Shown here piece after piece: positions 10,997-51,497 of a DNA stretch of 64,000 nucleotides. The translations under genes were made by a program, and so were the position numbers. A model generated the notes under the pieces. That model worked only from the letters and a program-made list of their open reading frames with translations. It did no database searches and was not told the DNA's origin. Each line of letters begins with the position of its first letter. Position 1 is the first letter of the stretch. The stretch is from a virus (Duplodnaviria; Caudoviricetes), in IMG/VR virus record IMGVR_UViG_3300001485_000138, positions 1 through 64,000 of that record; one strand, given 5' to 3'.

Positions 10997-11194
10997 ATGA
11001 AACGCTTCAATAACTCTCTCAACCAACATTGGACACAGCATCATGGGAAGATGGTTCCAAAGAAAGCCTACAACTCTCTTGATGAAGCTATGTCCATCAT
11101 TGACACTCTGTATAAAAACAAACCACATTACCACCCCTATATCTGTAGCTTTTGTGGTCAGTGGCATATAGGACACCATAAATTAAAGAAATAG
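10997..11194 (+). CDS. small Zn-finger protein
   Basis: YICSFCGQWHIGH. Confidence 0.7.
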   Translation: MKRFNNSLNQHWTQHHGKMVPKKAYNSLDEAMSIIDTLYKNKPHYHPYICSFCGQWHIGHHKLKK

Positions 11195-11221
11195 TAAGTG
11201 CTCAAAGGTTTTGCCTTTGAG
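11193..11221 (+). promoter_or_regulatory. AGTHAGTG-hairpin element, copy 1
   Basis: AGTAAGTG-CTCAAAGG-TTTTG-CCTTTGAG. Confidence 0.85.
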
Positions 11222-11237
11222 ATAAAAACAAAACAAA

Positions 11238-11849
11238 ATGACTGAATTTACAATCAAAGAAAAAGTATGCCTCAAGCATAAACTCTCTCTTGAGGAGTTT
11301 CTTGTGGCTCTGTCTGTAAGACAAATCAAAGACTTGCAGGCAGTAATTGATAATCTTCTTACCAGAGAAGTTTTAGTCAAGAAAGAAGGAAAGTATTATG
11401 TTACTCAGCATTGGTCTGATGTGGTAGATGAAATCATCTGTGATTCTGCACCAAACGAAGAAATGCCTGAGGAACAGTTAACTGAACTTGCCAAGCAGAT
11501 GCAAGCTATCTATCCTGCTGGCAAAATGCTTAATAAGTTTGGTATTGAAACTCCTTATTATTATCGCTGTAATGTAGGAGAAATCAAGAAACGTCTTAAG
11601 AAGTTCTTCCTGCTTAGTGGAAACTACACCAGTGAGGAAATCCTTGATGCTACACGCAGGTATGTAGAATCTTTCCATGGCAACTATAGAGGTATGCGTC
11701 TCATTAAGTATTTCATCCTTAAAGATGACATCAAGGAGACAGTGGAAGGAAATCACATAGAGCAAATTTCCGACCTTGCCACCTTCCTTGAGAACAAGGC
11801 AGAAGAAGATTATAATTGGAATGGAAGAGAGGAAGAGCTTGTAAACTGA
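11238..11849 (+). CDS. replication-associated protein (possible helicase loader/initiator)
   Basis: Directly upstream of the DnaB-like gene; helical; function inferred from position only. Confidence 0.45.
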   Translation: MTEFTIKEKVCLKHKLSLEEFLVALSVRQIKDLQAVIDNLLTREVLVKKEGKYYVTQHWSDVVDEIICDSAPNEEMPEEQLTELAKQMQAIYPAGKMLNKFGIETPYYYRCNVGEIKKRLKKFFLLSGNYTSEEILDATRRYVESFHGNYRGMRLIKYFILKDDIKETVEGNHIEQISDLATFLENKAEEDYNWNGREEELVN

Positions 11850-11856
11850 AATCTAT

Positions 11857-12948
11857 ATGAATTTAATTCAAAGAGTCCAGGAAAATATAATTCATAGAAG
11901 GCAAAGGATTCTTGATGGAAAGATTAACTGTATTCCTACACCCATTCCTACATTTAAATACTACTATCCAGGAGTAGAAAAAGCAACTTATTATCTTGTG
12001 TCAGGGGCAGGAAAAAGTGCTAAATCCAAAACAACTAATTTCCTGTTTGTATTTAATCCAATACTATATGCCTTTGAACATCAGGATTTGATAAGACTTC
12101 AGATATTTTATGCGCTCTTGGAGGAAACAGCAGAAAACATAACACTCAAATTTATCTGCTATTTACTGTATATAAAATATGGAATAAGAGTAGATATTAA
12201 GACACTCAAGTCCGTAGATTCCTCAAGAATAGTCTCTCAGGATATACTGGAAAAGATAAACTCATTAGAGATACAGGCAATTCTACATTTTTTTGAAGAA
12301 CATGTGGTATTCATACCTGACAGAAATCCTACAGGTATATATAATACCTTAAAAGAATATGCTGAAAGGAATGGGACTACACATAAAAAATTCGACGCAA
12401 GGGTAAATAATGAAATATTCGATTTTTACGAACCTAATGACCCAGAAGAATATGTTATGTGTGTGGTTGACCATGTATCACTGATTTCAACAGAAAGACA
12501 GATGGATTTGAGAGAGTCAATAAAGAAGTTATCAGAGTATATGAAAATCATACGTAATAAATATGGATATATTCCAGTTATCGTACAGCAGCAAAACTCT
12601 GAAACCATCAGTCTGGAAGCCTATAAGGCTAACAAGATAACACCTACCCAAAAAGGATGTGCCGACTCTCAAGACCCTCCTAAAGATTGTGATATGATGA
12701 TTGGAATAACAAATCCAGATGCCTTTGACATGAAAGAGTTCAAAGGCTATAATATTGCAAAATTAGGAGATTCTGCAAGATTCATTAACATTCCATTGGG
12801 AAGAGACAGTGCAAGCAATGTAGTCTTAGGTCTATACTTTGATGGAGCAACAGGTTTCTATAAAGCACTTCCAAAACCTGATGATGTAGTTAATTTGAGT
12901 AAAGTATATGAACTGATACGAAGAAATAAAGAATCCACCTCTAAGTAA
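11857..12948 (+). CDS. DnaB-like (SF4) replicative helicase
   Basis: Walker A-like GAGKSAKS, Walker B VVDHVSL, IVQQQN, R-finger region IPLGRD. Confidence 0.8.
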   Translation: MNLIQRVQENIIHRRQRILDGKINCIPTPIPTFKYYYPGVEKATYYLVSGAGKSAKSKTTNFLFVFNPILYAFEHQDLIRLQIFYALLEETAENITLKFICYLLYIKYGIRVDIKTLKSVDSSRIVSQDILEKINSLEIQAILHFFEEHVVFIPDRNPTGIYNTLKEYAERNGTTHKKFDARVNNEIFDFYEPNDPEEYVMCVVDHVSLISTERQMDLRESIKKLSEYMKIIRNKYGYIPVIVQQQNSETISLEAYKANKITPTQKGCADSQDPPKDCDMMIGITNPDAFDMKEFKGYNIAKLGDSARFINIPLGRDSASNVVLGLYFDGATGFYKALPKPDDVVNLSKVYELIRRNKESTSK

Positions 12949-12982
12949 TTTTCTAATAAAAAATTATCAATATTTTAAGCAT

Positions 12983-13014
12983 GTTGCTTGCCTCACTTAA
13001 AGCAAGTAACTTTG
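12983..13014 (+). promoter_or_regulatory. Bacteroidota housekeeping-sigma promoter
   Basis: -7 element TAACTTTG at 13007-13014; GTTG 20 nt upstream; ATG at 13048. Confidence 0.7.
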
Positions 13015-13047
13015 CAGTCACTAACAATAAAAAGAGTAGAAGAAACA

Positions 13048-13857: not shown

Positions 13858-13886
13858 AGTCAGTGCAAGACAGTTCGGCTGTCTTG
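13858..13886 (+). promoter_or_regulatory. AGTHAGTG-hairpin element, copy 2
   Basis: AGTCAGTG-CAAGACAG-TTCGG-CTGTCTTG. Confidence 0.85.
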
Positions 13887-14417: not shown

Positions 14418-15317
14418 ATGAAAGAAAACAATTACAGTTTCCTTGCTATTGGCAAGACACAGGACTCCGATAAAGGAGGTTTTAAGAGGTATATTGGTCT
14501 TGGTAGCACATTTATTAAGGGTGTGCAGCCTACCAAGAAAGAGCTTGATGAGTTCTTTGGCTTTGAATCTACATCAGAACCTGAGTACGTTAAAGAGGGA
14601 GAGAATGGAAAGGAAGTACATATCACATTCCTCATCCAGACTGACCCTGAAACTAACAATGGTATAGACCTCAAGTCCAGAGCTATGTTTACCCTCCGTA
14701 TGACTCCTGCTTACAACAGAGACCAGTCTAAGGTACAAGTAATAGACAAGTATGGTAACTATACCTATGTTTCTACTGAAGATGCAAAGGCAGGTAAGCC
14801 TATTCTTAACAGCTCTGGCAACCCTCAGAAGATAGACACCAAGTATCGCATGGCATGTGTAGGAGAATGTGACCTTGTGGCATTCCTCAAGAAGTATCTC
14901 TGTGTACCAGAAGCTTTCAATTATGTCAACGGTTCATGGGTGAAGAAGGAAGATGCTGATAACTATATCTTTGGTCTTGAACATATCAAAGATTATTTCT
15001 CTGGAAATTTCTCTGAGCTTAAAGAGGCATTGGCACTTCAACCAAACAACAAAGTTAAGCTTCTCTATGGGGTCAAAACTGATAAAGGCAAGCAATATCA
15101 AGCTGTTTGCACAAGAGGAGAACTCATCCTTCCAAACAATGCAGGCAGCTCTGCTGTTGCAAGATTGGAGAAAGACCTTACAAATGCTAAGCAGAATGGC
15201 TCATTCAGCACTACTGAGTATCGCGTGCAGGAACTCCAGGAATATACTGTCCAGCCAACTAATCTTGAAGAGAAACCACAGGAAGAAGCCAGTTCTTCCG
15301 ATGACTGGTGGAACTAA
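14418..15317 (+). CDS. probable single-stranded DNA-binding protein
   Basis: Sits between the AAA ATPase and primase; acidic/aromatic C-terminus EEASSSDDWWN. Confidence 0.55.
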   Translation: MKENNYSFLAIGKTQDSDKGGFKRYIGLGSTFIKGVQPTKKELDEFFGFESTSEPEYVKEGENGKEVHITFLIQTDPETNNGIDLKSRAMFTLRMTPAYNRDQSKVQVIDKYGNYTYVSTEDAKAGKPILNSSGNPQKIDTKYRMACVGECDLVAFLKKYLCVPEAFNYVNGSWVKKEDADNYIFGLEHIKDYFSGNFSELKEALALQPNNKVKLLYGVKTDKGKQYQAVCTRGELILPNNAGSSAVARLEKDLTNAKQNGSFSTTEYRVQELQEYTVQPTNLEEKPQEEASSSDDWWN

Positions 15318-15345
15318 GTAAGTGCTTTGAGGTTCTGCCTCAAAG
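15317..15345 (+). promoter_or_regulatory. AGTHAGTG-hairpin element, copy 3
   Basis: AGTAAGTG-CTTTGAGG-TTCTG-CCTCAAAG. Confidence 0.85.
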
Positions 15346-15377: not shown

Positions 15378-16400
15378 ATGCTAATAGGTAAAACTGCATC
15401 AAGTATATCAGTTCAAGAATTATTTCAAAAGTATTCAGAGGTACAGATATTCACCGCTGCCTTTCCTGAGATAACTTCAATACCTTGCAAGATAAGTTCA
15501 CCATTCAGAGTGGATAATAACCCGTCATTTAGTATATATCTTGACAATGGTGGGCATATAAAGTTCAAGGATTTTGGAGATTCCACATGTCATGGAGGAC
15601 TTCTTGACCTTCTATGCAAGAAATGGAACTGCTCTTTCCGGCAAGTCTTTGACAAGATTCTGCAACTCATGGCTCATAGTGAAGTCAGTGCAGAGGAATT
15701 TGGTTCCTCTGTTAAATCCAAGCAGATAAAAATACTCACCCGTAAGGAAGCCTCTGAATCTACCAAAATCCAAGTAGCTGTACGTCCTTGGCAAAAGTAT
15801 GACTATGACTACTGGGCATCCTATGGAATAGAAAAGCAGTGGCTTAAGTATGCAGAGATATATCCTATAAGTCATAAGATTGTCACTAAGAGGGATAGTA
15901 AGACAGGAAAACTTAATAAATACATATTTCCTGCTGATCAGTATGCTTATGTCTATGTAGAACGTAAAGAAGAGAAACTACAACTAAAGATATATCAACC
16001 CTATAATACTAAAGGATTTAAGTGGTGTTCTTGTATGGATTCTTCTGTTATATCTTTATGGACTAAAGTACCTGAAAGGGGAGATAGAATCATCATCTGC
16101 TCCTCAGTGAAAGATGCACTCTGTCTGTCTTGCAACTTGTATATACCTGCCATAGCTCCACAAGGAGAAGGCTACAGTCTTAGTGACACTGCTGTCAGTG
16201 AACTCAAAAGAAGGTTTGATAAGGTTTTTATTTGTTTTGATGTAGATAATGCAGGAAAGACAGATGCAGAGAAACTCGCAAAGAAAACAGGTTTTATCAA
16301 CATTGTACCTGACTTGGGGAAAACCAAAGACCTTAGTGACTATTGGAAATCCCTTGAAAACAAAGAAGACTTTAAACAACTTGAAACACTATTTCATTAA
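15378..16400 (+). CDS. DnaG-type DNA primase
   Basis: N-terminal SPFRVDNNPSF...FKDFG domain; TOPRIM CSSVKD and CFDVDNAG. Confidence 0.85.
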   Translation: MLIGKTASSISVQELFQKYSEVQIFTAAFPEITSIPCKISSPFRVDNNPSFSIYLDNGGHIKFKDFGDSTCHGGLLDLLCKKWNCSFRQVFDKILQLMAHSEVSAEEFGSSVKSKQIKILTRKEASESTKIQVAVRPWQKYDYDYWASYGIEKQWLKYAEIYPISHKIVTKRDSKTGKLNKYIFPADQYAYVYVERKEEKLQLKIYQPYNTKGFKWCSCMDSSVISLWTKVPERGDRIIICSSVKDALCLSCNLYIPAIAPQGEGYSLSDTAVSELKRRFDKVFICFDVDNAGKTDAEKLAKKTGFINIVPDLGKTKDLSDYWKSLENKEDFKQLETLFH

Positions 16401-21272: not shown

Positions 21273-21985
21273 CCATAAATGAATATTTTTCTGACTGGTC
21301 AAAAGTAATAGACCTGAATGAGGCAGATAGAATAATGAAGAAACTGTCTGCCTCTAAAACAACTATCTGTCCTAATCTCAAAGACATCTTTAAAGCATTT
21401 CGTCTATGTCCACTGGATAGTCTCAAGGCGATAATACTTGCACAAGACCCCTACCCCACCCTAAAGCAGTCTGTGCAAGGAAGTTCTGCTTCCTTATCCA
21501 TACCTGTAGCTACTGGTCTTGCATTTGCCAACTCTCCAGATACCCCAGAGACTCAATTATCTCCTTCCTTAGACATTCTTAGGAACTCTGTAATCGACTT
21601 TACGGTACCACATAATTGTATTAACTTTGACCCAAGTTTAGAGAAGTGGGAAAGGCAGGGAGTTTTATTACTCAATTCTGCACTCTCATGTGAAGCAGGA
21701 AAAGCAGGTTCACATACTCTGTTATGGAGAAACTTTATGAAAGTCTTGCTCACAAAACTCTCTGAATACCATACTGGTATAGTGTATATCCTGATGGGTA
21801 AGGTGGCAGAAAGCTTCGGTAGCTACATAGATGAAACACATAACTATGTACTGCACATCCGACACCCATCATGGTATGCCAGGGAAAAGAAACAAATGCC
21901 TTCAGATATATGGAGAAAGGTAGATGACATTCTTACACAACAATATGGGTATGGAATAGAGTGGTATCAAGAGTTTAACTTATAA
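21269..21985 (+). CDS. ung: uracil-DNA glycosylase, family 1
   Basis: AQDPYP, GLAF, GVLLLNSAL, HPS motifs. Confidence 0.9.
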   Translation: MTINEYFSDWSKVIDLNEADRIMKKLSASKTTICPNLKDIFKAFRLCPLDSLKAIILAQDPYPTLKQSVQGSSASLSIPVATGLAFANSPDTPETQLSPSLDILRNSVIDFTVPHNCINFDPSLEKWERQGVLLLNSALSCEAGKAGSHTLLWRNFMKVLLTKLSEYHTGIVYILMGKVAESFGSYIDETHNYVLHIRHPSWYAREKKQMPSDIWRKVDDILTQQYGYGIEWYQEFNL

Positions 21986-24319: not shown

Positions 24320-24348
24320 AGTCAGTGCTTTGCAATTTGGTTGCAAAG
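24320..24348 (+). promoter_or_regulatory. AGTHAGTG-hairpin element, copy 4
   Basis: AGTCAGTG-CTTTGCAA-TTTGG-TTGCAAAG. Confidence 0.85.
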
Positions 24349-24385
24349 AAAACCCTATAACATAATGCTTAAACATAATATAATA

Positions 24386-27685: not shown

Positions 27686-27690
27686 ATTTC

Positions 27691-27719
27691 AGTTAGTGCA
27701 GGGCAGTTCGGCTGCCCTG
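27691..27719 (+). promoter_or_regulatory. AGTHAGTG-hairpin element, copy 5
   Basis: AGTTAGTG-CAGGGCAG-TTCGG-CTGCCCTG. Confidence 0.85.
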
Positions 27720-27747
27720 TTCTATAATTAATAACCAAAAAATCAAA

Positions 27748-28284: not shown

Positions 28285-28292
28285 CATGTCAA

Positions 28293-28320
28293 CTATGCTA
28301 TAACATTGTTATAGCCCTAA
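28293..28320 (+). repeat. CTAT-hairpin-YCTAA element, copy A
   Basis: CTAT-GCTATAAC-ATT-GTTATAGC-CCTAA. Confidence 0.7.
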
Positions 28321-28331
28321 CACACTACAAT

Positions 28332-28763: not shown

Positions 28764-28858
28764 TGATATACTTAGTTACCACACAACATCTTTGGCTGGG
28801 AAAATTATAAAACCTCTCAGCCAAAGAGTCTCTACAAGTTGACAACACCGTGCTATAA
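28763..28858 (+). pseudogene. probable relic of the 5' end of a family A DNA polymerase gene
   Basis: TAATG-coupled start MIYLVTTQ, then ENYK (shifted frame) and LSAKESLQ; resembles the crAss-type PolA N-terminus as recalled. Confidence 0.5.
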
Positions 28859-28889
28859 GAATGGAAAACAAATAATAACGAACAGCAAG

Positions 28890-30813: not shown

Positions 30814-30843
30814 AAAACATCAACCCTTTAATTTATAAATACT

Positions 30844-31026: not shown

Positions 31027-31030
31027 TTAT

Positions 31031-31153
31031 ATGCACAATGAAGAGGAAGAGGTGGAAAGAGACACTCTGGAGGAGGAGTTGTACTTACTTACCCATACTC
31101 CCCACCTCTTTCCTGTTAATACCCCAAACCGCGTGAATTATAAACAAGAGTAG
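31031..31153 (+). CDS. small acidic peptide (40 aa)
   Basis: Hand-translated; TAG stop overlaps hairpin copy 6. Confidence 0.4.
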   Translation: MHNEEEEVERDTLEEELYLLTHTPHLFPVNTPNRVNYKQE

Positions 31154-31180
31154 TTAGTGCAAGATGATTCGGTCATCTTG
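31152..31180 (+). promoter_or_regulatory. AGTHAGTG-hairpin element, copy 6
   Basis: AGTTAGTG-CAAGATGA-TTCGG-TCATCTTG. Confidence 0.85.
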
Positions 31181-31899: not shown

Positions 31900-31900
31900 C

Positions 31901-31928
31901 CTATGCTGTAACACTGTTACAGCTCTAA
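31901..31928 (+). repeat. CTAT-hairpin-YCTAA element, copy B
   Basis: CTAT-GCTGTAAC-ACT-GTTACAGC-TCTAA. Confidence 0.7.
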
Positions 31929-31940
31929 AACCGATAAACT

Positions 31941-32979: not shown

Positions 32980-33008
32980 AGTAAGTGCAGCAAGATTTGG
33001 TATTGCTG
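32980..33008 (+). promoter_or_regulatory. AGTHAGTG-hairpin element, copy 7 (one stem mismatch)
   Basis: AGTAAGTG-CAGCAAGA-TTTGG-TATTGCTG. Confidence 0.75.
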
Positions 33009-33028: not shown

Positions 33029-33466
33029 ATGATATTCAAAGATAAAGGTATTATAGAAGAACATATAAACCAAATCTATCCAAACATCTTAGTAGTAGCA
33101 TTTGGAGACTTGGAACAGGAGGTAAATAAATATTATAAACCTTATGATACAGACTATAATTGGATAGCTAAACCAAGAGAAATTTCCAATGCTGCTACAT
33201 ATCAGATAACAAATAAAAAGACATTGGATAATGGTCTGCTTGTATGGTTTTCCTCAATGGATAAATATTCAACAAAGACATTATGTCATGAGTCTGGACA
33301 TGTAGCTCTTGAAATGTTTGCGTATATAAAGGAGAAAATAAGTACAGAATATCAAGAACCATTCTGCTATCTCCTCGGCTATATAGGCAAGTGTATCAAC
33401 AATACATTCTACAAGTATAAAGAATATTTAGAAAAGCAAAAAGAAATCAATAACACTCAAAAGTAA
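33029..33466 (+). CDS. small HExxH (zincin-like) protein, paralog 2
   Basis: LCHESGH...EPFCYLLGYI; track start 32942 runs through the hairpin, ATG at 33029 preferred. Confidence 0.7.
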   Translation: MIFKDKGIIEEHINQIYPNILVVAFGDLEQEVNKYYKPYDTDYNWIAKPREISNAATYQITNKKTLDNGLLVWFSSMDKYSTKTLCHESGHVALEMFAYIKEKISTEYQEPFCYLLGYIGKCINNTFYKYKEYLEKQKEINNTQK

Positions 33467-33490
33467 GTGCAAAGAGATTTGGTCTCTTTG
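33462..33490 (+). promoter_or_regulatory. AGTHAGTG-hairpin element, copy 8
   Basis: AGTAAGTG-CAAAGAGA-TTTGG-TCTCTTTG. Confidence 0.85.
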
Positions 33491-33502: not shown

Positions 33503-34498
33503 ATGAAACTGATAGAATCAAAAGCAGAATACATACCTCAAGAAGAAGGTCTTGAAGGTATTTATAAACAAATAGAACTTGCTGGAAGAACAGCCTATCA
33601 CTCTCAAGATAAAATTACTCCTACATCCGCAAAAGATTTTGTTGATAAGATGATTAAATCAAAGCACGGGGCAGCCTTAGAGCATGGTACTGTGTATTTG
33701 AAAATACCTATCCATGAAATGAGATATGGTTTATTATTTTGGATAAATTCCTCCAATATATTTTATGAGAATAACCCGTTTTCAAAAAGTATAAATGATA
33801 GAATATTTAAGTTATCTCCAGAGGATAATGCTTATATAGTAACTAACTATAGAGTTATTGTAGAAAACAGCAAGCTTGATGACCTTCAATATCTTTGCTC
33901 TCCTACTGAGTTTCATGAAAAAAGATATACCATGAGATTTACTTGTTCAAGAGCTATTGCAAATGAGCTGGTAAGACACAGAACCATGTCATTCCTTCAA
34001 GAATCAACCAGATATATCAATTATTCTAAGGAATGTCATGGAGGTGAGATTAACTTTATTAAACCTTCTTGGTTTAAAGAAAACCTATTATCAGTTGATT
34101 CAACAGTAGCACAACCATCTGACACTAATGGTGCTGTTTTCTATGAAAGACCATATAAGACTTATTATTTAGATGGTACAGAGACTGATGGTTTTGATTG
34201 GGATAAAGAAGACTTTTTCATTCATAGTTGTCAAACAGCAGAGAGGTGTTACCTCCTTATGTTAGAAGAAGGTGCTACTCCTCAGCAAGCAAGAGATGTT
34301 CTTCCCAATGCTACTAAGACAGAGTTAGTGGTCACTGGTTTTGCCAGTGATTATAAACATCTTTTTGACCTCAGGTTATTTGGCAAGACAGGAGCCCCTC
34401 ATCCAGATATGACTGACCTTATGCAGAAAGCTCAAGCAGCTATGCAAGAAGCTGGTATATGGAACGACATTATGAATAAACCATCTAAATTTGAATAA
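33503..34498 (+). CDS. thyX: flavin-dependent thymidylate synthase
   Basis: KHGAALEH, RHR-x7-S motif (RHRTMSFLQES), ESTRY, QQARDVLP; track start 33467 lies in the hairpin. Confidence 0.92.
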   Translation: MKLIESKAEYIPQEEGLEGIYKQIELAGRTAYHSQDKITPTSAKDFVDKMIKSKHGAALEHGTVYLKIPIHEMRYGLLFWINSSNIFYENNPFSKSINDRIFKLSPEDNAYIVTNYRVIVENSKLDDLQYLCSPTEFHEKRYTMRFTCSRAIANELVRHRTMSFLQESTRYINYSKECHGGEINFIKPSWFKENLLSVDSTVAQPSDTNGAVFYERPYKTYYLDGTETDGFDWDKEDFFIHSCQTAERCYLLMLEEGATPQQARDVLPNATKTELVVTGFASDYKHLFDLRLFGKTGAPHPDMTDLMQKAQAAMQEAGIWNDIMNKPSKFE

Positions 34499-35747: not shown

Positions 35748-35901
35748 CCACATGAGTGACTCCTTTCAACAGGAAATGTCACAGCCTTTCCACCATAACT
35801 TCGACTATGATGGTGGGCATTGGTACAAACTTATGCTTAACCACTGTACCTACAATAAAACAAAAAACCAGATTTCAGTAACCCTAACTTACAACATATA
35901 G
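35677..35901 (+). CDS. hypothetical protein (74 aa)
   Basis: ORF track; stop overlaps hairpin copy 9. Confidence 0.6.
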   Translation: MITLKLFNNLPPSIRKKIAKVVFNHMSDSFQQEMSQPFHHNFDYDGGHWYKLMLNHCTYNKTKNQISVTLTYNI

Positions 35902-35928
35902 TAAGTGCAGAAAGGTTCGGCCTTTCTG
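35900..35928 (+). promoter_or_regulatory. AGTHAGTG-hairpin element, copy 9
   Basis: AGTAAGTG-CAGAAAGG-TTCGG-CCTTTCTG. Confidence 0.85.
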
Positions 35929-36379: not shown

Positions 36380-36413
36380 TAAATAATAAATAGTAAATCG
36401 TCAAATAGTAAAT
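36374..36413. repeat. three direct repeats of AAATAGTAAAT
   Basis: Copies at 36374, 36388 and 36403. Confidence 0.8.
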
Positions 36414-36419
36414 AAGATT

Positions 36420-36992
36420 ATGCCAAACTGGGCTTCTGTATCCTACAGAATCGTAGGACCTAAAGAAATATTACAAAAAGTATATGATGCTGTACAGTAT
36501 CCTATGATAGAAGAAGGCTCAAGTGAAGATTGGGAAGGTAATGTACTAAAAACCCTTAAACCTGACTGGAAATGCCCTGAAGGGGAATCTATACGAGGAT
36601 TCATACAATACTTTGATTTACAAAGATTAGATGAATGTGAATATATAATCTTAGATGCTGATGAAGCATGGGGCTTAACATGTTTCCATGAAGAACTCAG
36701 CAAGATATTCTCTGACCTTAACATCTTCTATATAGTTGAAGAACCTGGACTTGAAGTATATCACACTAATGATGTTGAAGGTGTATTCTTTCCAGAAAGA
36801 TTATATGTAGATGCTTGTATTGATAATGACTATTATTCTGAATACTTCCAAACAGAGAAAGATGCCTATCATTATATCGCAAAGATAACCAAAGGTGCAA
36901 TCAAAAGCAAGGATGACCTTGAGAGATTCAACAAAGATAACACCAATGAAAATGATTTCATAAGCGTTCATGAGTTTGAAATTGATGAGTAA
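36420..36992 (+). CDS. MPNW-start (DUF1281/ferredoxin-like-fold) phage protein
   Basis: MPNWASVSYRI...EAW...EEPG pattern (recalled family). Confidence 0.55.
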   Translation: MPNWASVSYRIVGPKEILQKVYDAVQYPMIEEGSSEDWEGNVLKTLKPDWKCPEGESIRGFIQYFDLQRLDECEYIILDADEAWGLTCFHEELSKIFSDLNIFYIVEEPGLEVYHTNDVEGVFFPERLYVDACIDNDYYSEYFQTEKDAYHYIAKITKGAIKSKDDLERFNKDNTNENDFISVHEFEIDE

Positions 36993-37016
36993 GTGCTTCA
37001 AGATTCGGTCTTGAAG
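36988..37016 (+). promoter_or_regulatory. AGTHAGTG-hairpin element, copy 10
   Basis: AGTAAGTG-CTTCAAGA-TTCGG-TCTTGAAG. Confidence 0.85.
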
Positions 37017-37050
37017 TAATCCCAACTACCTATTGGTAGAACATTCCACA

Positions 37051-37087
37051 GGAGAGGGAGATAACAAGTGTATTTGCCTCTCCTTTT
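37051..37087 (+). terminator. putative intrinsic terminator ending the replication module
   Basis: GGAGAGG/CCTCTCC stem followed by TTTT. Confidence 0.55.
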
Positions 37088-37147
37088 ACCAATCCTAATA
37101 ACAACTAACAAAAATCCTAAACAACACTAAGATTTAGCTTAAACTGT

Positions 37148-37178
37148 TTTGTTATATAAACATTAAGCTGTATCTTTG
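37148..37178 (+). promoter_or_regulatory. Bacteroidota housekeeping-sigma promoter for the RNAP gene
   Basis: TTTG (37148-51)-19 nt-TATCTTTG (37171-78), a perfect -33/-7 consensus. Confidence 0.85.
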
Positions 37179-37198
37179 TGCTAATAAATTCAACAGAC

Positions 37199-40100: not shown

Positions 40101-43100
40101 ATCCAAGTAATATCGGCAGTAAGATTGAGGAGTTCTTCTGGAACACTAAACTTGCTACTATACAGCAGCTACAAATGATGACCATAGACCCTGCTTTCTA
40201 TGCTAACACCAAGGACCTTCAGAAACGATATAAGGAAATTCATGCTCCTGGCTCTATACTGGATGTCAGAGCTATAGATATCTATGCTCCTAATGCAGGA
40301 ACAAGATACTCTGATGGTATAGAAAGAGTTGTGTACTTTGATGATTTGTCACTCAATGCAGAGGTGTTTAATCCTGAGTTCATGGAAGCGATCTTAAGAA
40401 ATTTTGCTGCACCAGGTGTTACCAAAGAAGATATAGACCAAGCAGTAGCCGATAATATCTTGTCTCCAAGGGATTCTAAGGAAGAAGAAACGAAGAGAAT
40501 AAACAGGCTGTCTGAGTTATTAGGAAGTAATTATAAGATTTATGATGTCTATATGAAGAACTCCCTCACTGATGGTCAAGGTTACAGAACTCTTCATAGC
40601 TACCGTAAGGTTATGGGTATGGCTGGTAAGTGGACTCCTGAAATGCAGAGTGCTTATGAGACCATCATGAACATCAGAAATACCCATGCTATATGGGAGA
40701 ATGGTAAGATAGTGGACTATTCAGAACTTACAGATGAGGAAATGAAACAGCTGGGAGACCTTGCTGTCATATTCCAACCTATAAAGCCTTATATGTTCAC
40801 ACATGAAACTATACCTGTGGAAGTAAACCTCAAAAAAGATGGTAAGACTGTTGTTGGTCTTGATGAAAAACCTGTTACTAAAAAGACAGTTCATTATATA
40901 CCTGTACAACATAAGTATGCTGAAGCTGTAATCATACCGGAATTACTTCCTAAAGGACATAAACTCAGAGACCTCGGATATTGGATGGATGAGAATAATG
41001 TGGATATGATTGGTTCTACCAAGATTGCAAAGGTAGGTGCCTATGGACAAGCTGACTTCAGTGATGTAAAGGATAAGTCTGACTTGTATGGAAGACTTAA
41101 CAATAGCTCTGTTGTAATTCATTCTCTTGACTATAGTGACTATAGAATTCAGACTAATGTTCCTGAGCATATCAACTCTTCACAACTCTTTGGTACTCAA
41201 ATAAGAAAGCTGATAATGGCTGGACTATTAGACTCTAAAGACTACTCTGATTACATTAACGGACATGTGGTCAATCTTGAAGCAGGAGATGGAAGAAACA
41301 CTGAAACAAGATTGTTAGGCAATAACCTGCTGGCTTTCTATAACAGCTTGCATACTGCAAATATCATGGACTCTTACAATATATTTGCTAATAATGCTAC
41401 AGACATAATCAAGATGGCAGAACTCTTACAGCAAAGTACTGTCACTTCCATGAGAGAGGCTATGGATAATATCCTCTCCTATGTTGTAACTGGCTCTGAG
41501 AAAGAACTGCAAAGATTCCTCATTCCTCTGTTTGAAGGGGGTCTTGAGCATGACTCTGCTGCTCTCATACTTTCTACTTTTAAGAAGATTGTCAACAAGC
41601 AGCAAATATCAGGTGGTTCTGCTGTTCAGGTTTCTGCATTTGGAATACAAGGGTATGAAGAGGATGGAGACCTTAGGTATGTTACTGACCCTGACAATGC
41701 TGCCAATGTCTTGTATGCAGAGGTTGAAATGCCATTCGACAAGTCTATTACTGTAGATGTAGCAACTAAAGATGGTACTGTTAAAAAGCCGGTAAGTCTG
41801 AGTTATGATAAGTATTGTTTCCATGATGGTCATTTAAGACCTATGGATAAGGCTCTTGAAAAGGGAACAAAGGAGTGGAAAAAATATCAGTCATACACTT
41901 ATAAAAGGGTAGATGGAAAACTTGTACCTTGCAAGTACAATGACCCTCAAGCTGAGGTACACAAACCTCTTATAGAAGAAGAATACCCTGATTGTCTTAG
42001 TTTCATAGCATACCGCATACCTACAGAGCGTGCTTACTCCATGATGAATTGTCAAATCAAGAGGTTCACATCTAAGGTAGCTGGTGGTACTATCAAAGTT
42101 CCAGCACAAGGTACTACTATTGCAGGTTTTGACTTTGATATTGATAAGCTCTACTTCATGCTGAGAGAATACCACAAGCATTACAAGAGTGAGATGTATG
42201 TAGAAAATAACTTCTCTAATAAGGACAAGCAGGATATATGGAATAGAGTTTATGAAAAATATCCAGATGTAAAAGTAGCACTCATAGCTGCAAGAAGCAC
42301 TGCTGAATTCCAAAATCCTGAACTTACTACAGATGAAAGTAAAAGACCTGCTCTCAACTCTTACTGGGAGGCTGCTGATATTGAAGCAAGATTTGGCCTT
42401 AACAAAAGGACTGCTTTTGCCGAAGCTGCTTTGGAGTTAGATATAAAACCTACAAAGAACGTAGTTACTGGAGAAACATCTGAATGGTTAGAAACCTATG
42501 ACTTCAGTAAGACTCCTGAAGAAAATACAAGAGCTTCGAGGAATAACATACTTATATCTCTCATACAAGCAAGACTTATGGATGCAGATACTATGAATGC
42601 AAGATACACACCAGGTGGTTTTGATAATGCTTCAAGAGCTGCAAGATTCATGAGGGAACTTATGCATGGAGATATGGAAGGTGTTACAAAAACCAATGGT
42701 TCTCAATACACAGCTATTTATATAAATGAGATATTGAAAAGGTATGACGACAAGAAAGCTCAAGACCCTGAGCCTAATTATGACCCATCTGACCCTTATA
42801 CTATTCTCTACTATAACCAGCAGAATCAGATTGCAGGTAAGCTGATTGGTATATTTGCCAACCAAAACACTAACCATGCATTTGTATCTGCTATGGAGTT
42901 ATTTGAGTTGAAAGAACCAATAGAGTTCTGTGGGCATAAATTCAAAGACCTGCTACATAAGAATACTCCAATGGCTGCGGAAATTGATACCAATATGGCT
43001 AATTTCCTGGGTGCTGCTGTAGATGCAGTGAAAGACCCTACACTGAACTTCCTTAATCTTAACACTGTAACTGCTGATGCAGGAGCTATGTTGGCAAGAC

Positions 43101-45709: not shown

Positions 45710-45757
45710 CTCTATAACCTTTATAACTTCTATAAATAACAGATAAAATTCAATAAT

Positions 45758-48700
45758 ATGGCAGAAGCATGTGCATTAAAAGCTCATGTCAAGAATCCTC
45801 AAGGAGAAATAGTGGAAAGCAGGTTATTCAATGACCTGCTCCACTACACCTCCAATGACAGACAGCTTACAAAGGAATACTATGCTGTAGGTACTGATAA
45901 GGATTTTCTTAACATGGTGCAGGATAGGGAAGAGTTTAAAACTGATGAAAATGGGGAGATTACATTTGCTTCCCTCAGAACTCTTACCAAGATGGACATT
46001 GAAGCAGATAAACTGCTGAAAGTCTTAAACAAGGATATTGGTCAGGGGGAATATGACTATGAAGAAGCTCTGAGAAGAGTGCAGAACTTCAATACCCATA
46101 ATCCTATGGCTGATAGGGCTATGGCTATACTGACCCCTACATCTGGTGGCAGATACACAGTAAGTGTAACTATGAATACATCTACTGTTACTGATATTGA
46201 TGGTAAGGAATCTAAAGAATCTAATGTGTCTGACACACAAAAGAAACTTCATGATACCGTAAGAAACAAAGAGGTTGAAAAAAGAATCATAGCTCTGCTA
46301 AGAGGGCATCATGTCTCTGTAGATTTCCTTGAGAATAAACAAGATGGAGGAAGATATTCTACTGAAAATATTTCTGCTGCTGAAGATGGCCTGTATGCTC
46401 TCATTACAATAAATGGGGGAGGCAATGTCACTGATACTCTTGCTGAGGAAGCAGGACACTTTGCTATAGGTGCCATGGGAAATCACCCATTAGTACAAAG
46501 GCTGGAAAAGATACTATCAAGTCCTGAAGCTCAAAAGGAAGCATTGGGACAGGAAGAATATGAGAATACTGCACTTGGTAAAAATCCTGCAAGGGAAGTA
46601 GCAGGTAGGTTGGTAGGTAAAGCCTTGCAAAGAAAACTTGGCAACAACTCTTCAATAAATGTATTAGCTAACAGAATTGCCAATATAGCCAAAAGAATGT
46701 TTGCTAAGATTTCAGGAAATGAAGTAAGATGGGCTGCTGCTAAAGCTGAACAGATTGCTAACAGAATTGCATACCAGTTTATTGAAGGTAACAGTAACTT
46801 CTCTGTGCAGAATGCAATAGACATTGAGGAAACTATGATGCATGGTACTACAACCATGAATCAAAGGATATTCAGAGATACAGTAGATGAGTTGGGAAGG
46901 CTATGTAAAAGACTGGAAGCTATATCTGAGGATAACTTTGCAGGACAGGCTAACATGGCTTTAGGTCTGTCTATGCTGGCTAGTGTAGATGAAACAAGTG
47001 GAGAGTCTGCACTTCAAATGGCAGGACAGACTGCTGATGCATTTGCATTTGATGGTGTTGTACAAGCTGTAGTGCAAATATCCAACTTTCTCGGTCAGGG
47101 AATGAGGATTGACAACATGCTTAGTGAGATAGACTCGAGGAATCCTTCCAAGTTCTATACTAACATGGCTGCTAATGGTAGGAAACTAAGGCAGGTAAGA
47201 ACATTTCTTTACAGTGCAAGAAGCATTATAGATAATATAAGTCAATCTCTTGACTATGATGCAAGAGTAAAACTAAACACTGTAGGACCTTCAGCACATG
47301 AAGTGCAATACCAAGATTCTAATAATGTGTGGCAAACACTTGACTTGATAAACACCTTGGAACAATGTTCAAAGCTGGTAAGGCACTATGAACAAAAGCT
47401 TAATATAAAGGAATCTGCTTACTTTGCACAATTCTGCACTGATGTATATGGACATAAATATATATCTGGTGCTACTGGAGTATTATGGAAAGACATCAGA
47501 GAAGGACAATCTGCTGGTGAAGAAAGAAAAATAACATTTGAGGATGCAATCAGTGGGGAAGGTATAACTGATATAGATATATTCCACAGATTCCTCGGCT
47601 CTATGTCTAACAATCCTGATGTTGTAGGACAGATTGCTGATAAAGTAATGAAGACTGCCAATAAAAATGCAGATGACTTTACACTAAGGGATACAGAAGA
47701 CATCCTGATACTTGATCAGAGAGCAAGAGATTTAGGACTTAACATGAGTGACCTTATGGAAAAAGACACTGAAGGTGTTCCTACAGGTAATCTCATAACT
47801 CCTCCTGCACAACCTAATGATAACAATCCTGAAGAAACTGCCATATACAATGCCTACATGAACGAACTTAACTATGTACCTGCTATCAATCATGGGGCTT
47901 GGGAAGCTGCAAGAGACAAGGCTAAACAAGAGGCTTGGGAGGAATTCAAAGAGGCTAACCCAGGATGGGAATCATGGGTTGGTATATATAGAGGACTGAA
48001 ATGGGATGAGTTTTATCGCAAAAGGTATAAGGAATGGAATAAAAACAACAGTATCCTTATCAAAGTAACTAATCCTCAGACAGGAAGAGAATACTCTAAG
48101 TGGATTCCTAATGGTATATATACTACAGATGCATGGAGCGAACTTGAGAAGAAATACCCTAAGAAAGGAAATGATTCTATACTCAGATGGGTATCTGACT
48201 ATATGGCTGTCAAGAAGAGGTTAGATGATAAACTTCCTATGGAAGCCACATTGTCTTACAGATTACCACAAGTAAGAGGTACTTTGATAGATACCATGCG
48301 TAATACTGAAATGCAACAGAGTGGTAATTTCAGGCGATTTAAAGCTTTCAACAAAGGATTAAGAAGAAGAATACTTGACTCATTTGTTGTACAGGCAGAT
48401 GAGACAGATTTTGGAGATATGTCAACTATGAACTCTTCTAAGGATGAGCTGCTTGGAACTCCACTCAACTATGAACAGGAGAGGTCAATGAGACTTACCA
48501 CCTTTGGTATCAATAAATTAGATGATATGAGAGATTTATCTAACGATATATTAGGCTCTCTTATTGCATACTCCTCAATGGCCAATTCCTACATGTGTAC
48601 AGATGCTGTAGTAGATGCACTGGAGGTAGGAAGGTCAACACTATATACAAGAGAATTCAAGGATGACTGGTTAGACAGGCAGCTTAAGAAAACTAAGGGA

Positions 48701-50668
48701 GGAAAGGCTCTATATAAAAAGATGAACTCTTACAGAAAACCTCAAGGCATTACTGAAACTATATATGAAGGTTCTAAGAACAGGGCATTTAACAGGTATA
48801 TCAAGTTCCTCGACAAACAGGTATATGGAATTTCTTCAAGTTATTTTAGTTTCTCACTTTTTGGTAAGCAAATAGTACCTGCAAGAATCATGAACAATCT
48901 AAGCAGTCTGGCAGGATTTACTTACCTGCAAGGTAATGTTCTTGGCGGTATGGTAAATACCAATACTGGTTTCCTCAATATATTCAAAGAAGCTCTGTCA
49001 AGTGAGTTTTTCAATACTAAAGATTGGGGATGGGCACATAGATGGTATTTTAAACACTTCTTCCAAATGTGGGGGTCTGATGCTGGTAAAATACACAAAA
49101 ATAATAAGCTGGGACTATTCCTTGAAATGGTAAATGCTCAAGGAGATAACAAAACTAAATTCAGGCATTGGAGAACTAACAGAAGCAGAGTTACCAACTT
49201 CCTTAATATGTCAGGGTATCTCCCCTACTCTTCTGGAGACCACTACATGCAGGCCATGTCATACCTCTCTGTTGCTCATGGAACAAATCTATATGACATC
49301 TATGGTAATAAAGTTTCTAACCTGTGGGATGCCTATAAGACAAGAGAGAATAAGGATGACTTAGGTGATTTCAAGAAAGGCAAAACCATTGAGTTTGAAA
49401 AACTAAACCCTGTGGCAGCTACATCCATAACAATAAAAGACATAGATTCTAAGGGAGTTTATCTTAAACCTATAAAGAGAAATGACCAAACATTCTATGA
49501 GTGGGCTATAACTCAAGATGCAAGATTTGCTGATGATGCTTACAGAAGGGATAATCAGTATGAGTATTTCCAACTTAAGGAAAAGTTTGACAACTTATCT
49601 GAGAAAGAACTCATGCAGTACGTATCACAAAGATATCAATTAGCAGAAAGTATCCTCAGAAAAGTTGAAAACTATAAGAATGACACAAGTCCACTTAAAG
49701 TAGTTCCAACTTTTACACAAGAGGAAGAAGACTACCTGAGAATGTTAGGAAGAGGTGATACAGAATACGACAATATCCTTGCATCTGTCAAGAATGATAT
49801 ATTCAGCTTGATATGGAATAAAGATGAAGAGTCTGCATATATGGACAAATGTCGTGAAATAAATAACAGGCTGCATGGTATATATAATCAGCAAGATAAA
49901 ACTGCTGCACAACAAAACTGGTTCTTTAATGCTGTACTTGCTATGAGGGGATGGGCTCTTGGAAATCTTGAAAATATGTGGTCAAATAATCACTACAGTA
50001 TGGCTCTTGACAGATATACTGAAGGATTTATGAACACTGCCCTTAAAGTAGGTATTGATGGTTTTTGGAGAAGAAGGATAGATACCGAAAATAGGCTTAC
50101 CATAATACAAGCTCTGACAGCCATTACTGTTCCTTGGTCTCAAAGAAGCAAGAACGCTATGAATAAAGCTGGGTATTCTATTACACAGTATAATAATATG
50201 AAAAGATTTGCTGCACACATGTACCTCATGACGTTGTTATATCTTGCTAAATGGGCTACTACGCCTCCTCCAAAAGAAGAAGATGAAGATGGAAACCCTT
50301 GGATAGTAAATATGATGTATTACCTATCCATGCGTGCATACTATGAACAATCTGCATTAGCAGCTTCTATTGACTTCATAAACTCTGCAACCGAAATGCA
50401 TCAGCTTGCAGAAATAGTACCGGTAGGTATTTCTGCTACTATTCAATTAGGAGAATTGCTATGGCAGCTTGTCAACACCCCATTCCATGAAGAAGATAAT
50501 AGTGATTACTACTATCAACAGGACGATCCAAATGGAAAATATAAGGAAGGTGATTGGAAAGCTCTTATTAAAATCAGAGGCATGATACCATATTATAAAT
50601 CCCTATGGGGACTTCAGCACCCAGATGCAGCTGCTGATGCTTATTCATTCGGAAGAAAGATGAAATAA
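45758..50668 (+). CDS. large virion/ejection protein of the RNAP cluster (1636 aa) with degenerate zincin motif
   Basis: Size and position; LAEEAGH (230-234) where HExxH is expected. Confidence 0.65.
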   Translation: MAEACALKAHVKNPQGEIVESRLFNDLLHYTSNDRQLTKEYYAVGTDKDFLNMVQDREEFKTDENGEITFASLRTLTKMDIEADKLLKVLNKDIGQGEYDYEEALRRVQNFNTHNPMADRAMAILTPTSGGRYTVSVTMNTSTVTDIDGKESKESNVSDTQKKLHDTVRNKEVEKRIIALLRGHHVSVDFLENKQDGGRYSTENISAAEDGLYALITINGGGNVTDTLAEEAGHFAIGAMGNHPLVQRLEKILSSPEAQKEALGQEEYENTALGKNPAREVAGRLVGKALQRKLGNNSSINVLANRIANIAKRMFAKISGNEVRWAAAKAEQIANRIAYQFIEGNSNFSVQNAIDIEETMMHGTTTMNQRIFRDTVDELGRLCKRLEAISEDNFAGQANMALGLSMLASVDETSGESALQMAGQTADAFAFDGVVQAVVQISNFLGQGMRIDNMLSEIDSRNPSKFYTNMAANGRKLRQVRTFLYSARSIIDNISQSLDYDARVKLNTVGPSAHEVQYQDSNNVWQTLDLINTLEQCSKLVRHYEQKLNIKESAYFAQFCTDVYGHKYISGATGVLWKDIREGQSAGEERKITFEDAISGEGITDIDIFHRFLGSMSNNPDVVGQIADKVMKTANKNADDFTLRDTEDILILDQRARDLGLNMSDLMEKDTEGVPTGNLITPPAQPNDNNPEETAIYNAYMNELNYVPAINHGAWEAARDKAKQEAWEEFKEANPGWESWVGIYRGLKWDEFYRKRYKEWNKNNSILIKVTNPQTGREYSKWIPNGIYTTDAWSELEKKYPKKGNDSILRWVSDYMAVKKRLDDKLPMEATLSYRLPQVRGTLIDTMRNTEMQQSGNFRRFKAFNKGLRRRILDSFVVQADETDFGDMSTMNSSKDELLGTPLNYEQERSMRLTTFGINKLDDMRDLSNDILGSLIAYSSMANSYMCTDAVVDALEVGRSTLYTREFKDDWLDRQLKKTKGGKALYKKMNSYRKPQGITETIYEGSKNRAFNRYIKFLDKQVYGISSSYFSFSLFGKQIVPARIMNNLSSLAGFTYLQGNVLGGMVNTNTGFLNIFKEALSSEFFNTKDWGWAHRWYFKHFFQMWGSDAGKIHKNNKLGLFLEMVNAQGDNKTKFRHWRTNRSRVTNFLNMSGYLPYSSGDHYMQAMSYLSVAHGTNLYDIYGNKVSNLWDAYKTRENKDDLGDFKKGKTIEFEKLNPVAATSITIKDIDSKGVYLKPIKRNDQTFYEWAITQDARFADDAYRRDNQYEYFQLKEKFDNLSEKELMQYVSQRYQLAESILRKVENYKNDTSPLKVVPTFTQEEEDYLRMLGRGDTEYDNILASVKNDIFSLIWNKDEESAYMDKCREINNRLHGIYNQQDKTAAQQNWFFNAVLAMRGWALGNLENMWSNNHYSMALDRYTEGFMNTALKVGIDGFWRRRIDTENRLTIIQALTAITVPWSQRSKNAMNKAGYSITQYNNMKRFAAHMYLMTLLYLAKWATTPPPKEEDEDGNPWIVNMMYYLSMRAYYEQSALAASIDFINSATEMHQLAEIVPVGISATIQLGELLWQLVNTPFHEEDNSDYYYQQDDPNGKYKEGDWKALIKIRGMIPYYKSLWGLQHPDAAADAYSFGRKMK

Positions 50669-50723
50669 TAATTGCTATCTGGACTTTACAAATCATCCAG
50701 ACTTGTTGATGAAAATGTTGTTA

Positions 50724-50763
50724 GGAGAGGGAGTAATACCAACTTCCTCTCCCTTTCTTTTTT
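50724..50763 (+). terminator. intrinsic terminator
   Basis: GGAGAGGGAG/CTTCCTCTCC stem followed by a T-rich tract. Confidence 0.8.
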
Positions 50764-50782
50764 CCATCTGAGCCAAAACTCC

Positions 50783-50790
50783 TACCTTTG
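50783..50790 (+). promoter_or_regulatory. Bacteroidota -7 promoter element
   Basis: TACCTTTG 12 nt before the ATG at 50802. Confidence 0.6.
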
Positions 50791-50801
50791 CAGAAAAAGA
50801 C

Positions 50802-51449
50802 ATGTGGGAGAAAATCAAAAATAGCGGAATATCAAGAGGAATAAAAAAGCATATAAAAATTATAGCACTAATATTCCTAATGGTAGAAGTATATATAATG
50901 TTTATAATAAATCCACACAATGAATACTCTACTTCTATTAAACTGTCGATTGCCATTTGTGGGTCTATTGCTATTGATTTTTTATTATTGGGAATTATAG
51001 TGGCCATTTCAATAACCTACAATATTACAAAATCTGTAGCATACGGAATATGTAAAGGTTTAAAATTTATTAAAGAAAAATGTAAAAAGGAAAAAGACGC
51101 CTTTAAAGCAATCGGAGGATTTTTATTTATGATTATTCTTGTTGCTACTGGTATATGTGTTGTCTTTGCTGTAGGATGGGTTTTAGACCAAATTAAAGAT
51201 ATACTTGCAGTTATATTTTGTATTATTTTATATCTTATAATTATAATATTATACATTTATTTATTATGTCATAATTACAAATATTTTAGAGAAAAGCATA
51301 GTATATTTGGTTCAAGCATGCTATCCTTCTTTAGATCGACTTTTATTTTTTGTATTATAGGAGGTGTACTACATTTTATAGGAAAATGTGCACCAGATTT
51401 TGATACTACTGAATATCCAGGAAGATTAAAGATGGAACATCGTAGGTAA
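50802..51449 (+). CDS. AT-rich polytopic membrane protein (215 aa)
   Basis: About 5 Ile/Phe-rich TM segments; own promoter; followed by hairpin copy 11. Confidence 0.75.
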   Translation: MWEKIKNSGISRGIKKHIKIIALIFLMVEVYIMFIINPHNEYSTSIKLSIAICGSIAIDFLLLGIIVAISITYNITKSVAYGICKGLKFIKEKCKKEKDAFKAIGGFLFMIILVATGICVVFAVGWVLDQIKDILAVIFCIILYLIIIILYIYLLCHNYKYFREKHSIFGSSMLSFFRSTFIFCIIGGVLHFIGKCAPDFDTTEYPGRLKMEHRR

Positions 51450-51468
51450 ATGTAAAGTTTTCAGCAAT

Positions 51469-51497
51469 AGTCAGTGCAGCCTGATTTGGTCAGGCTG
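51469..51497 (+). promoter_or_regulatory. AGTHAGTG-hairpin element, copy 11 (at the convergence point)
   Basis: AGTCAGTG-CAGCCTGA-TTTGG-TCAGGCTG. Confidence 0.85.

Follow-up and report, generated by a model that had tools for sequence, protein, structure and literature searches.

A strand-locked hairpin element at cistron and cassette borders of a crAss-like gut phage

What kind of signal is a hairpin that recurs along the replication genes of a phage in one format and on one strand, with a different stem in every copy? The question is raised by a crAss-like gut phage of the Caudoviricetes, represented by IMG/VR record IMGVR_UViG_3300001485_000138 (86,674 bp, estimated 73% complete), of which bases 1–64000 form the 64-kb window analysed here. 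A sequence-only reading of this window had described eleven copies of a 29-nt hairpin and had assigned them either to the phage RNA polymerase, as hairpin promoter or terminator, or to RNA processing or protein binding. A 120,340-bp ENA scaffold, 100% identical to the window over the compared 20.4 kb, brought the sequence covered to about 105 kb of a 120-kb genome, all of it except some 15 kb at roughly 95.9–110.7 kb in window coordinates. Across this sequence the element, referred to here as family 1, is strand-locked, marks the borders of cistrons and cassettes, mainly those of the replication module, and is lineage-specific, a cis-element under purifying selection for structure.

The family-1 element comprises, within 29 nt, AGTHAGTG as a fixed, single-stranded 8-mer, then C, an 8-bp stem of free sequence and a TTYKG loop. 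The strict pattern AGTHAGTGC-N7-TTYKG has 13 matches in the window, compared with 0.02 in shuffled sequence, and a covariance model built from 21 distinct copies (the sample for all pairing statistics below) finds 15 copies in the window, a number that rises to 19 over the full ~105 kb. Both searches return + strand matches only, and no real match to the model lies on the − strand. All 21 copies score between 26.7 and 45 bits and the 19 of this genome between 32 and 45, far above the best noise at 16.4. The eleven copies of the sequence-only reading are all real, with correct coordinates, a length of 29 nt each and + orientation; their number was too low, since 15683, 51802, 21468 and 34323 had been overlooked in the window. 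Further copies lie beyond it at 66557, 68330 and 68777 in the same record and, on the ENA scaffold only, at ~93146, in the gap that follows the major capsid gene. Stem pairing amounts to 98.2% of cells, whereas shuffles reach 57% (0 of 500 as high) and slid-partner controls 30–54%, and all eight stem pairs vary on both sides, which bears out the covariation claimed at the outset. Ten of the eleven copies first listed are indeed perfectly Watson–Crick, 32980 with a G.A mismatch being the exception, and the reported near-lack of G.T pairs extends to the full set, in which G.U fills 1 of 168 stem cells and other mismatches three. C-G forms the first stem pair in 19/21 copies, A or T occupies the second position in 19/21, and the top two pairs carry a purine on the 5′ arm in every copy. 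Predicted RNA folds of the hairpins have energies of about −9 to −17 kcal/mol, and in RNA the first U of the loop is predicted to pair with its last G, giving 9 bp with a terminal U.G and a 3-nt loop. The elements match no Rfam family at gathering score, the window's single match being a tRNA at 309–382, and a by-eye check for a pseudoknot or rRNA pairing of flank or loop revealed no complementarity. A second hairpin format, family 2, combines TATG, a 7–8 bp stem, a 3-nt loop and NN-CTAA and occurs in three copies, all on the + strand.

Relatives at 90–99% identity are present in four runs of contigs (one labelled metatranscriptomic, probably DNA), and close relatives of ~93–99% nucleotide identity, found through exact-protein look-ups and cited here by L numbers, carry orthologous copies; that at 51802, for example, is conserved in L223, L224 and L225. 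Substitution rates pooled over 24 comparisons are 1.3% in stems, 4.2% in loops, 5.2% in the flank (mostly at one site) and 3.3% in the surrounding 150-nt flanks, the stems changing 2.5 times slower than the background, and the freely varying sites are loop positions 3–4 and flank position 4. Five stem changes were seen: two together make up one compensatory replacement of A-T by G-C (33462, L217), one converts G.T to G-C (34323, in L217) and two break a pair. The replacement at 33462, found in L217 and L218, affects the pair that closes the loop. Covariation and slow stem change together support what had been proposed from the letters, namely a selected cis-acting signal in which structure outweighs stem sequence. 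Its distribution is narrow. Not one of the 160 loci (2.7 Mb) taken around PolB homologs in IMG/VR and metagenomes contains a member; pattern scans of IMG/VR gave 7 and 28 matches, none with a paired stem; the matches listed from species genomes (at least 120) were all single, lay in unrelated taxa and included no family member, one of them having a single mismatch, about the chance expectation; and a megablast search against GenBank phages gave no match. Hairpins listed de novo in the nearest PolB relatives form no equivalent family, and nearest PolB-locus relatives have orthologous junctions without the hairpin, as at the 31152 junction in L009 and L097.

The elements are distributed unevenly over a genome with a clear gene order. 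On the + strand, small open reading frames (ORFs) extend from about −7.9 to 11 kb and are followed at 11–37 kb by the replication module, with DnaB-like helicase, Sak4-like annealase, primase, exonuclease, nrdJ, dUTPase, PolB and ThyX, and then by the gene of the virion RNA polymerase (vRNAP; 37199–45709, +), with DFDID at residue 1645 counted from ATG 37199; from 51.5 kb the − strand carries small genes and the tail, portal, ring and capsid proteins. Thirteen of the 19 family-1 copies fall in the replication block, which spans 26 kb. None lies in the ~19 kb at the head of the + block, where small + genes leave free gaps, the polymerase module holds none, and copy-free stretches of 14 to 24 kb occur elsewhere in the genome; the sequence-only reading was right that copies are lacking below 11 kb and in the giant genes (zero at 37–51.4 kb). 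Each of the ten intergenic copies of the + block begins no more than 5 nt from a stop codon, if the small ORFs ending at 35900 (49 aa) and at 32980 (62 aa) are included, and the TAG or TAA is often common to stop and flank. The next ATG follows 12–48 nt past the hairpin, much as had been described, and at 36988 about 180 nt past it. Placement on or just after stop codons, also described for the eleven copies, holds for this set, but 4/19 copies are intragenic (15683, 21468, 34323 and 66557) and 6/19 lie within the − strand module, where they are still + oriented and antisense to the local genes. Because the − module copies and family 2 stay +, orientation follows the genome strand and not the local gene. 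The gene layout confirms that 36988 and 51469 mark ends of transcription units, a terminator-like placement in which 36988 ends the module and 51469 occupies the convergent gap, and the hairpins at 51469, 51802 and 51951 stand in or beside successive gene junctions within the first 500 bp past the convergent junction.

Host-type signals are arranged differently. TAnnTTTG −7 boxes occur in nine gaps of the − module, before the vRNAP gene (37171) and before gene 50802; most large gaps of the − and vRNAP modules have one, the + block gaps up to 37 kb are almost without them, and neither the elements nor the sequence after them contain a TAnnTTTG or TTTG box. A sigma-70 consensus scan gave fewer matches than shuffles and so carries no information for a Bacteroidota host. 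Hairpin tails read ATAAAAA, TTCC and similar, ATAA following 7/19 own-genome copies, and a U-tract is missing behind every copy, in agreement with the first description. Canonical hairpin-plus-U terminators are present separately from the elements, at 17164, ~37050 and 50724, and the 36988 copy is followed by such a hairpin with its U-run and then by a host-type promoter. In the crAss-like model phage phi14:2, the whole replication module forms the early class and is transcribed by the virion polymerase, and middle and late genes are transcribed by the host polymerase. The present genome fits this picture, with host −7 boxes outside the + block up to 37 kb and almost none inside it, and by analogy its replication module would be an early class read by vRNAP. 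The phi14:2 virion polymerase accepts only single-stranded DNA templates in vitro, and its early class yielded no common promoter motif.

A natural exchange of the polymerase bears directly on whether vRNAP recognises the elements. L207, L217 and L225 possess a different vRNAP module, whose giant protein combines DFDVD with a fused PIF1 helicase part; in the catalytic region the two vRNAPs share ~25% identity. The boundaries of the swap lie at 37180, just past the host-type promoter at 37171, and at 51518. L207 is 99% identical to the present genome up to 37180 and keeps 35900 and 36988 unchanged, and L217 keeps four copies with stems intact or improved. At the convergent junction, L223 and L225 have a canonical bidirectional terminator where the 51469 copy sits here. 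Since the elements pass unchanged, and with their stems still constrained, through an exchange for a ~25%-identical enzyme, the virion polymerase is unlikely to recognise them sequence-specifically, and what the element does is probably independent of the RNA polymerase that the phage encodes. Of the phage polymerase signal first suggested, the concentration in a block that is early by analogy with phi14:2 stands; the tie to the enzyme itself is weakened by this constancy. The 37180–51518 module of the present genome encodes proteins of 2836, 1636 and 215 aa, and the swapped module, as compared in L207, L217, L225 and L223, a 3541-aa protein with PIF1/AAA-helicase hits and DFDVD and a 1295-aa protein.

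Homology among the relatives frequently begins or ends at an element. Eight of 21 homology breakpoints lie within 25 nt of one, compared with an expectation of 3% for random positions and of 21% for random positions confined to 25 nt around an intergenic gap. At the 11193 site, L211, L213 and L215 have a 187-aa gene (~540 bp) exactly in the element's place. At the 24320 site, L216 has the same flank followed by an unrelated hairpin (TCTTGTGG-TTTTC-CCACAAGA) and then nrdD instead of nrdJ; a different family-1 copy comes after nrdD, and homology is back 5 nt past the 27691 hairpin. The same relative is without the 91-aa DUF3310 gene and its family-2 hairpin (31.6–31.9 kb), the right boundary coinciding with the hairpin end. 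The otherwise unrelated phage L222 has in common with the present genome one 110-aa gene and the 68777 copy, and homology stops at the element. The two families can also occupy one site: at 51943–51973 a family-2 hairpin is found here and in L225, and a family-1 copy in L223 and L224. The nine shared bases and the hairpin serve as crossover points for gene exchange among relatives, in the way of PeSL cassettes (see below) in T4-type phages, and the short shared flanks appear to be seams along which gut phages exchange replication genes, including nrdJ and nrdD, PolB and PolA, and whole polymerase modules. In L216 (a 93% relative), the segment corresponding to 24327–31934 carries, for nrdJ, an nrdD that is split by an ORF bearing a helix-turn-helix, a family A polymerase for PolB, and an additional 157-aa gene. 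Insertions of homing-endonuclease type were also seen, an HNH ORF in the Sak4-like region (13644/13645, L215) and a LAGLIDADG ORF at 18707 (L211), neither of them at a hairpin element.

One copy was built where it stands. The copy inside thyX shows no indel relative to solved ThyX structures. Other crAss-like ThyX genes read ELVMTGFISDWK or similar at the motif concerned, and their DNA matches the flank partly and forms only 0–5 of the eight pairs; the present lineage reads ELVVTGFASDYK. Relative to L014, the closest ortholog shown, two synonymous changes complete the flank, and the replacements M to V and I to A complete the stem. At least this copy was therefore not inserted but made by point changes under selection, and it illustrates the birth of a cis-signal within a conserved motif of an enzyme.

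Among known systems, the closest kind is the PeSL (promoter-early stem-loop) cassette of T4-type phages. PeSLs are small repeated intergenic units that reach from a stop to the next start and contain a stem-loop; they populate plastic early regions, lie beside DNA polymerase and nrdD, and mark indel or replacement boundaries (Arbiol et al. 2010, PMC2839356; Comeau et al. 2014, PMC4122927). The present elements resemble PeSLs in sitting between stop and start in a plastic early region and in marking such boundaries, as the eight breakpoints show. What sets the element apart from PeSL is the absence of a host promoter (PeSL has a sigma-70 promoter, whereas here there is neither a −33/−7 motif nor room for one), the free and strictly Watson–Crick stems (those of PeSL are often poly-G/poly-C with G-T), the fixed flank and loop, and the strand-lock regardless of gene direction, which, like birth in a coding motif, finds no mention for PeSL in the section and abstracts consulted. 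With the hairpin promoters of phage N4, the element has in common a conserved single-stranded stretch 5′ of a hairpin on one strand. However, the N4 P2 oligonucleotide has a 5-bp stem, a 3-nt loop and a key −11G purine, and the present hairpin an 8-bp stem and a 5-nt TTYKG loop; N4 has few promoters, at the first-entering end, and here there are 19 copies with none in the ~19-kb head; the N4 enzyme is T7-like, and here it is of the two-barrel type (DFDID). Survival of the elements through the vRNAP swap, an indirect test, likewise suggests that they are not recognised by the phage's own polymerase as in N4. The G+C-rich hairpin with an immediate U-tract that makes an intrinsic terminator is not what the elements offer. 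REP/BIME and T7 RNase III sites are intercistronic hairpins past stop codons, able to protect the 3′ end of the mRNA upstream or to attenuate transcription, and the present hairpins lie likewise between cistrons just past stops. T7 RNase III sites are two-tier duplexes of ~20 bp, and REPs have a short conserved 5′ motif beside a palindrome whose stem sequence is common to the copies, occur in both orientations and depend on RAYT; here, in contrast, the stems are 8–9 bp, all different and on the + strand only, and neither a Y1/HUH transposase nor RAYT was among the Pfam hits of the called genes, an incomplete gene set. The attC sites of integrons rely on structure over sequence, stand one per cassette gene in one orientation and recombine as a folded single strand; they are 57–141 nt long and imperfect, with R and L boxes and extrahelical bases, and require the IntI integrase. 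Conservation of structure rather than sequence is shared with them, but the present hairpins are perfect and 21 nt long, and no integrase is among the annotated genes.

Our preferred reading, which we put forward tentatively, is that the element acts as PeSL-like punctuation in the rightward transcripts from the early replication module and is read by a conserved factor. The hairpin would form in the + sense transcript just past the stop codon, and flank, apical loop and hairpin would be bound by a putative conserved trans-acting protein, not by vRNAP itself; the outcome would be attenuation, termination or a protected 3′ end, and in this way the ratios and timing of the replication cistrons would be set. 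The + strand copies in the − module would then halt or mark rightward antisense transcription, which means that + sense transcription of the − module has to be assumed. Several observations weigh against this reading. Three intragenic copies are in sense orientation (in primase, ORF 21269–21985 and thyX), one of them selected in place, and a sense intragenic terminator or cleavage site would truncate essential mRNAs. Besides the missing U-tracts, the hairpin-to-ATG gaps of 12–21 nt leave no room for a promoter, so that termination could only be partial. The near-absence of G.U would be unusual for a constraint acting on RNA only, the 13858 copy in L211 and L213 has a decayed flank (AATCTATA, AGTTTGTA) and an intact hairpin, and no candidate binding protein was identified. 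Strand-lock, intragenic copies and strict Watson–Crick pairing are in fact better fitted by a strand-specific signal at the DNA level, the + strand hairpin being read as single-stranded DNA or cruciform by a replication or recombination protein, which we regard as possible though doubtful. It could be a priming or loading site on one template strand, as in unidirectional replication, or a nicking or recombination hot spot; both are possible roles. Several facts favour it: 19/19 family-1 and 3/3 family-2 copies occupy the + strand however the genes run, and in the − module 7/7 copies do so (two-sided p ~0.016 if orientation were free); G.T is almost absent; the genome tolerates copies inside genes, one of which was assembled there; the elements do not depend on which vRNAP is present; crossovers occur precisely at the border of flank and hairpin and are over-represented near elements; and genes for primase, DnaB-like helicase, Sak4-like annealase and exonuclease lie alongside. 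However, it does not fit the regional clustering, leaving unexplained why 13/19 copies gather in the 26-kb block, why the ~19-kb head is empty and why there are gaps of 14 to 24 kb; nor does it explain the fusion with stop codons beyond a tolerance of intergenic sites, and the GC3 skew points, if to either strand, to the − strand as the more exposed (confounded by expression level). It is likewise possible, though doubtful, that such single-stranded DNA hairpins direct a genome-wide one-directional process, as primer or loader sites or as entry or pause sites for transcription-driven genome handling. If so, the strand of the element and not the local gene direction would matter, selection would recruit sites even inside essential genes, and the two hairpin 'brands' would be interchangeable, both serving a single machinery.

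A plain promoter or terminator, the functions originally named, does not account for the strand-lock, the four intragenic copies or the birth in place within thyX, and we consider a hairpin promoter for a phage RNA polymerase unlikely. It might act rightward, with a start in the A-rich run, or leftward in the manner of N4, with the + strand as template and a start in AGTHAGTG. The single-strand requirement of the phi14:2 enzyme in vitro, its elusive early motif and the N4 precedent for structure-based hairpin promoters invite the idea, and so do the position 12–48 nt upstream of ATGs, the recurrent ATAA, inverted repeats perfect enough to suit cruciform extrusion, intragenic copies that would be harmless as internal promoters, and an early block without host-type promoters. 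Yet the elements are unchanged beside a 25%-identical vRNAP, and the first ~19 kb of the + block has none, its head carrying a five-copy TGTGTAAAAG array. A rightward transcript from 36988 would meet a terminator 35 nt on, and those from six copies would enter late genes in antisense; with leftward firing, 13 copies would produce RNA antisense to the replication genes. Moreover, the length of the A-run behind the hairpin varies among relatives, and none of the other crAss-like relatives examined has the family. It is highly improbable that the element is a selfish miniature mobile hairpin (REP-, PATE- or MITE-like), inserted into one strand and of no benefit to the phage. Presence or absence and replacement of elements among 93–97% relatives, a strand bias reminiscent of transposition through single-stranded DNA, and the travel of the 68777 copy with one gene into the otherwise unrelated L222 would agree with mobility, but every stem differs, so the copies did not spread by copy-and-paste. 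The thyX copy consists of point changes with no indel, purifying selection acts on the stems, the Pfam hits of the called (incomplete) gene set include no transposase, RAYT or integrase, and the species-genome matches listed include no related family. To the question of which signals organise early transcription and replication in crAss-like phages, this lineage contributes a sharply defined 29-nt signal together with a set of natural 'mutants': a hairpin left intact beside a decayed flank, a compensatory pair, a flank retained next to another hairpin, one site occupied by either family 1 or family 2, and either of two very different virion polymerases. The features of the window are collected in Table 1.

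Table 1. Hairpin elements and adjoining transcription signals in the 64-kb window
Feature	Coordinates	Strand	Context
Family-1	11193..11221	+	Overlaps TAG of a small ORF, 16 nt before ATG 11238; 41.0 bits; first copy, at start of replication module
Family-1	13858..13886	+	Directly after TAA of Sak4-like gene
Family-1	15317..15345	+	Overlaps stop, 32 nt before primase ATG; orthologs in L211, L213, L215
Family-1	15683..15711	+	In frame inside primase ORF 15378-16400; 42.1 bits; identical in three 93-96% relatives
Family-1 variant	21468..21496	+	Inside ORF 21269-21985; flank AGTCTGTG, C.A at stem base; 34.1 bits
Family-1	24320..24348	+	Directly after TAG, 16 nt before nrdJ ATG
Family-1	27691..27719	+	5 nt past nrdJ stop, 28 nt before dUTPase ATG
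Family-2 hairpin	28294..28320	+	Gap after dUTPase
Family-1	31152..31180	+	Overlaps TAG, 16 nt before ATG of DUF4494 gene
Family-2 hairpin	31902..31928	+	Next to 91-aa gene
Family-1	32980..33008	+	One G.A mismatch; 3 nt past stop of 62-aa ORF, 20 nt before ATG 33029
Family-1	33462..33490	+	Flank gives TAA of upstream gene; 12 nt before thyX ATG
Family-1	34323..34351	+	Inside thyX, on conserved ELV(M/V)TGF motif; first pair G.T
Family-1	35900..35928	+	Overlaps TAG of 49-aa ORF, 19 nt before ATG 35948
Family-1	36988..37016	+	Flank gives TAA of last replication-module gene
Canonical intrinsic-terminator-like hairpin + U-run, not a family member	37050..37087	+	Downstream of 36988
Host (Bacteroidota-type) −7 box TATCTTTG	37171..37178	+	TTTG 19 nt upstream; precedes vRNAP gene 37199-45709
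Family-1	51469..51497	+	Convergent gap: last + gene stop 51449, first − gene stop 51511
Family-1	51802..51830	+	Antisense to − strand ORF 51511-51942; abuts in-frame ATG 51801; 44.9 bits
Family-2 hairpin	51951..51977	+	Between two − strand genes

Some further observations concern the surroundings of the elements. The TATCTTTG sequence, the commonest host-type −7 box of the phage, is also read on the − strand of 15317–15345 and 51802–51830, where the right arm ends in CAAAG and is followed by ATA; at 51802 it lies ~24 nt before the in-frame ATG 51801. At 36985–37095, three hairpins follow one another, namely the 36988 element, a small CUACC/GGUAG hairpin and the canonical terminator (together −37.8 kcal/mol, z −4.75); they would yield a unit of ~70 nt resembling a small RNA if a start lay past the 36988 element. 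The gap at 36380–36422, between genes 35948–36379 and 36420–36992, is built of repeated AAATAGTAAAT units and has a very high summed depth and dozens of loose ends in the four runs, as if common to many contigs. The excess of a Chi-like 8-mer, AGTNAGTG, was considered as a separate signal and dismissed, since the elements account for it wholly.

The divergent gap that heads the + block holds, in a stretch of 170 bp, five tandem copies of TGTGTAAAAGRRAGATAT (L219:636–806, ~8.1–8.0 kb left of window base 1, on the 120-kb scaffold), and on the + strand this motif is found nowhere else in the 105 kb; the array is a candidate early-promoter array or a candidate set of origin iterons. Third-position GC (GC3) skew on the coding strand is +0.03 in + genes and +0.25 in − genes, a difference that may reflect either genome-wide strand asymmetry or expression class, the two being confounded. 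The post-capsid copy, at L220:2744–2790 (~93.13–93.17 kb), has a third arm (TTATCTGT / CCAGATAA / TTATCTGG), so that two mutually exclusive hairpins are possible there.

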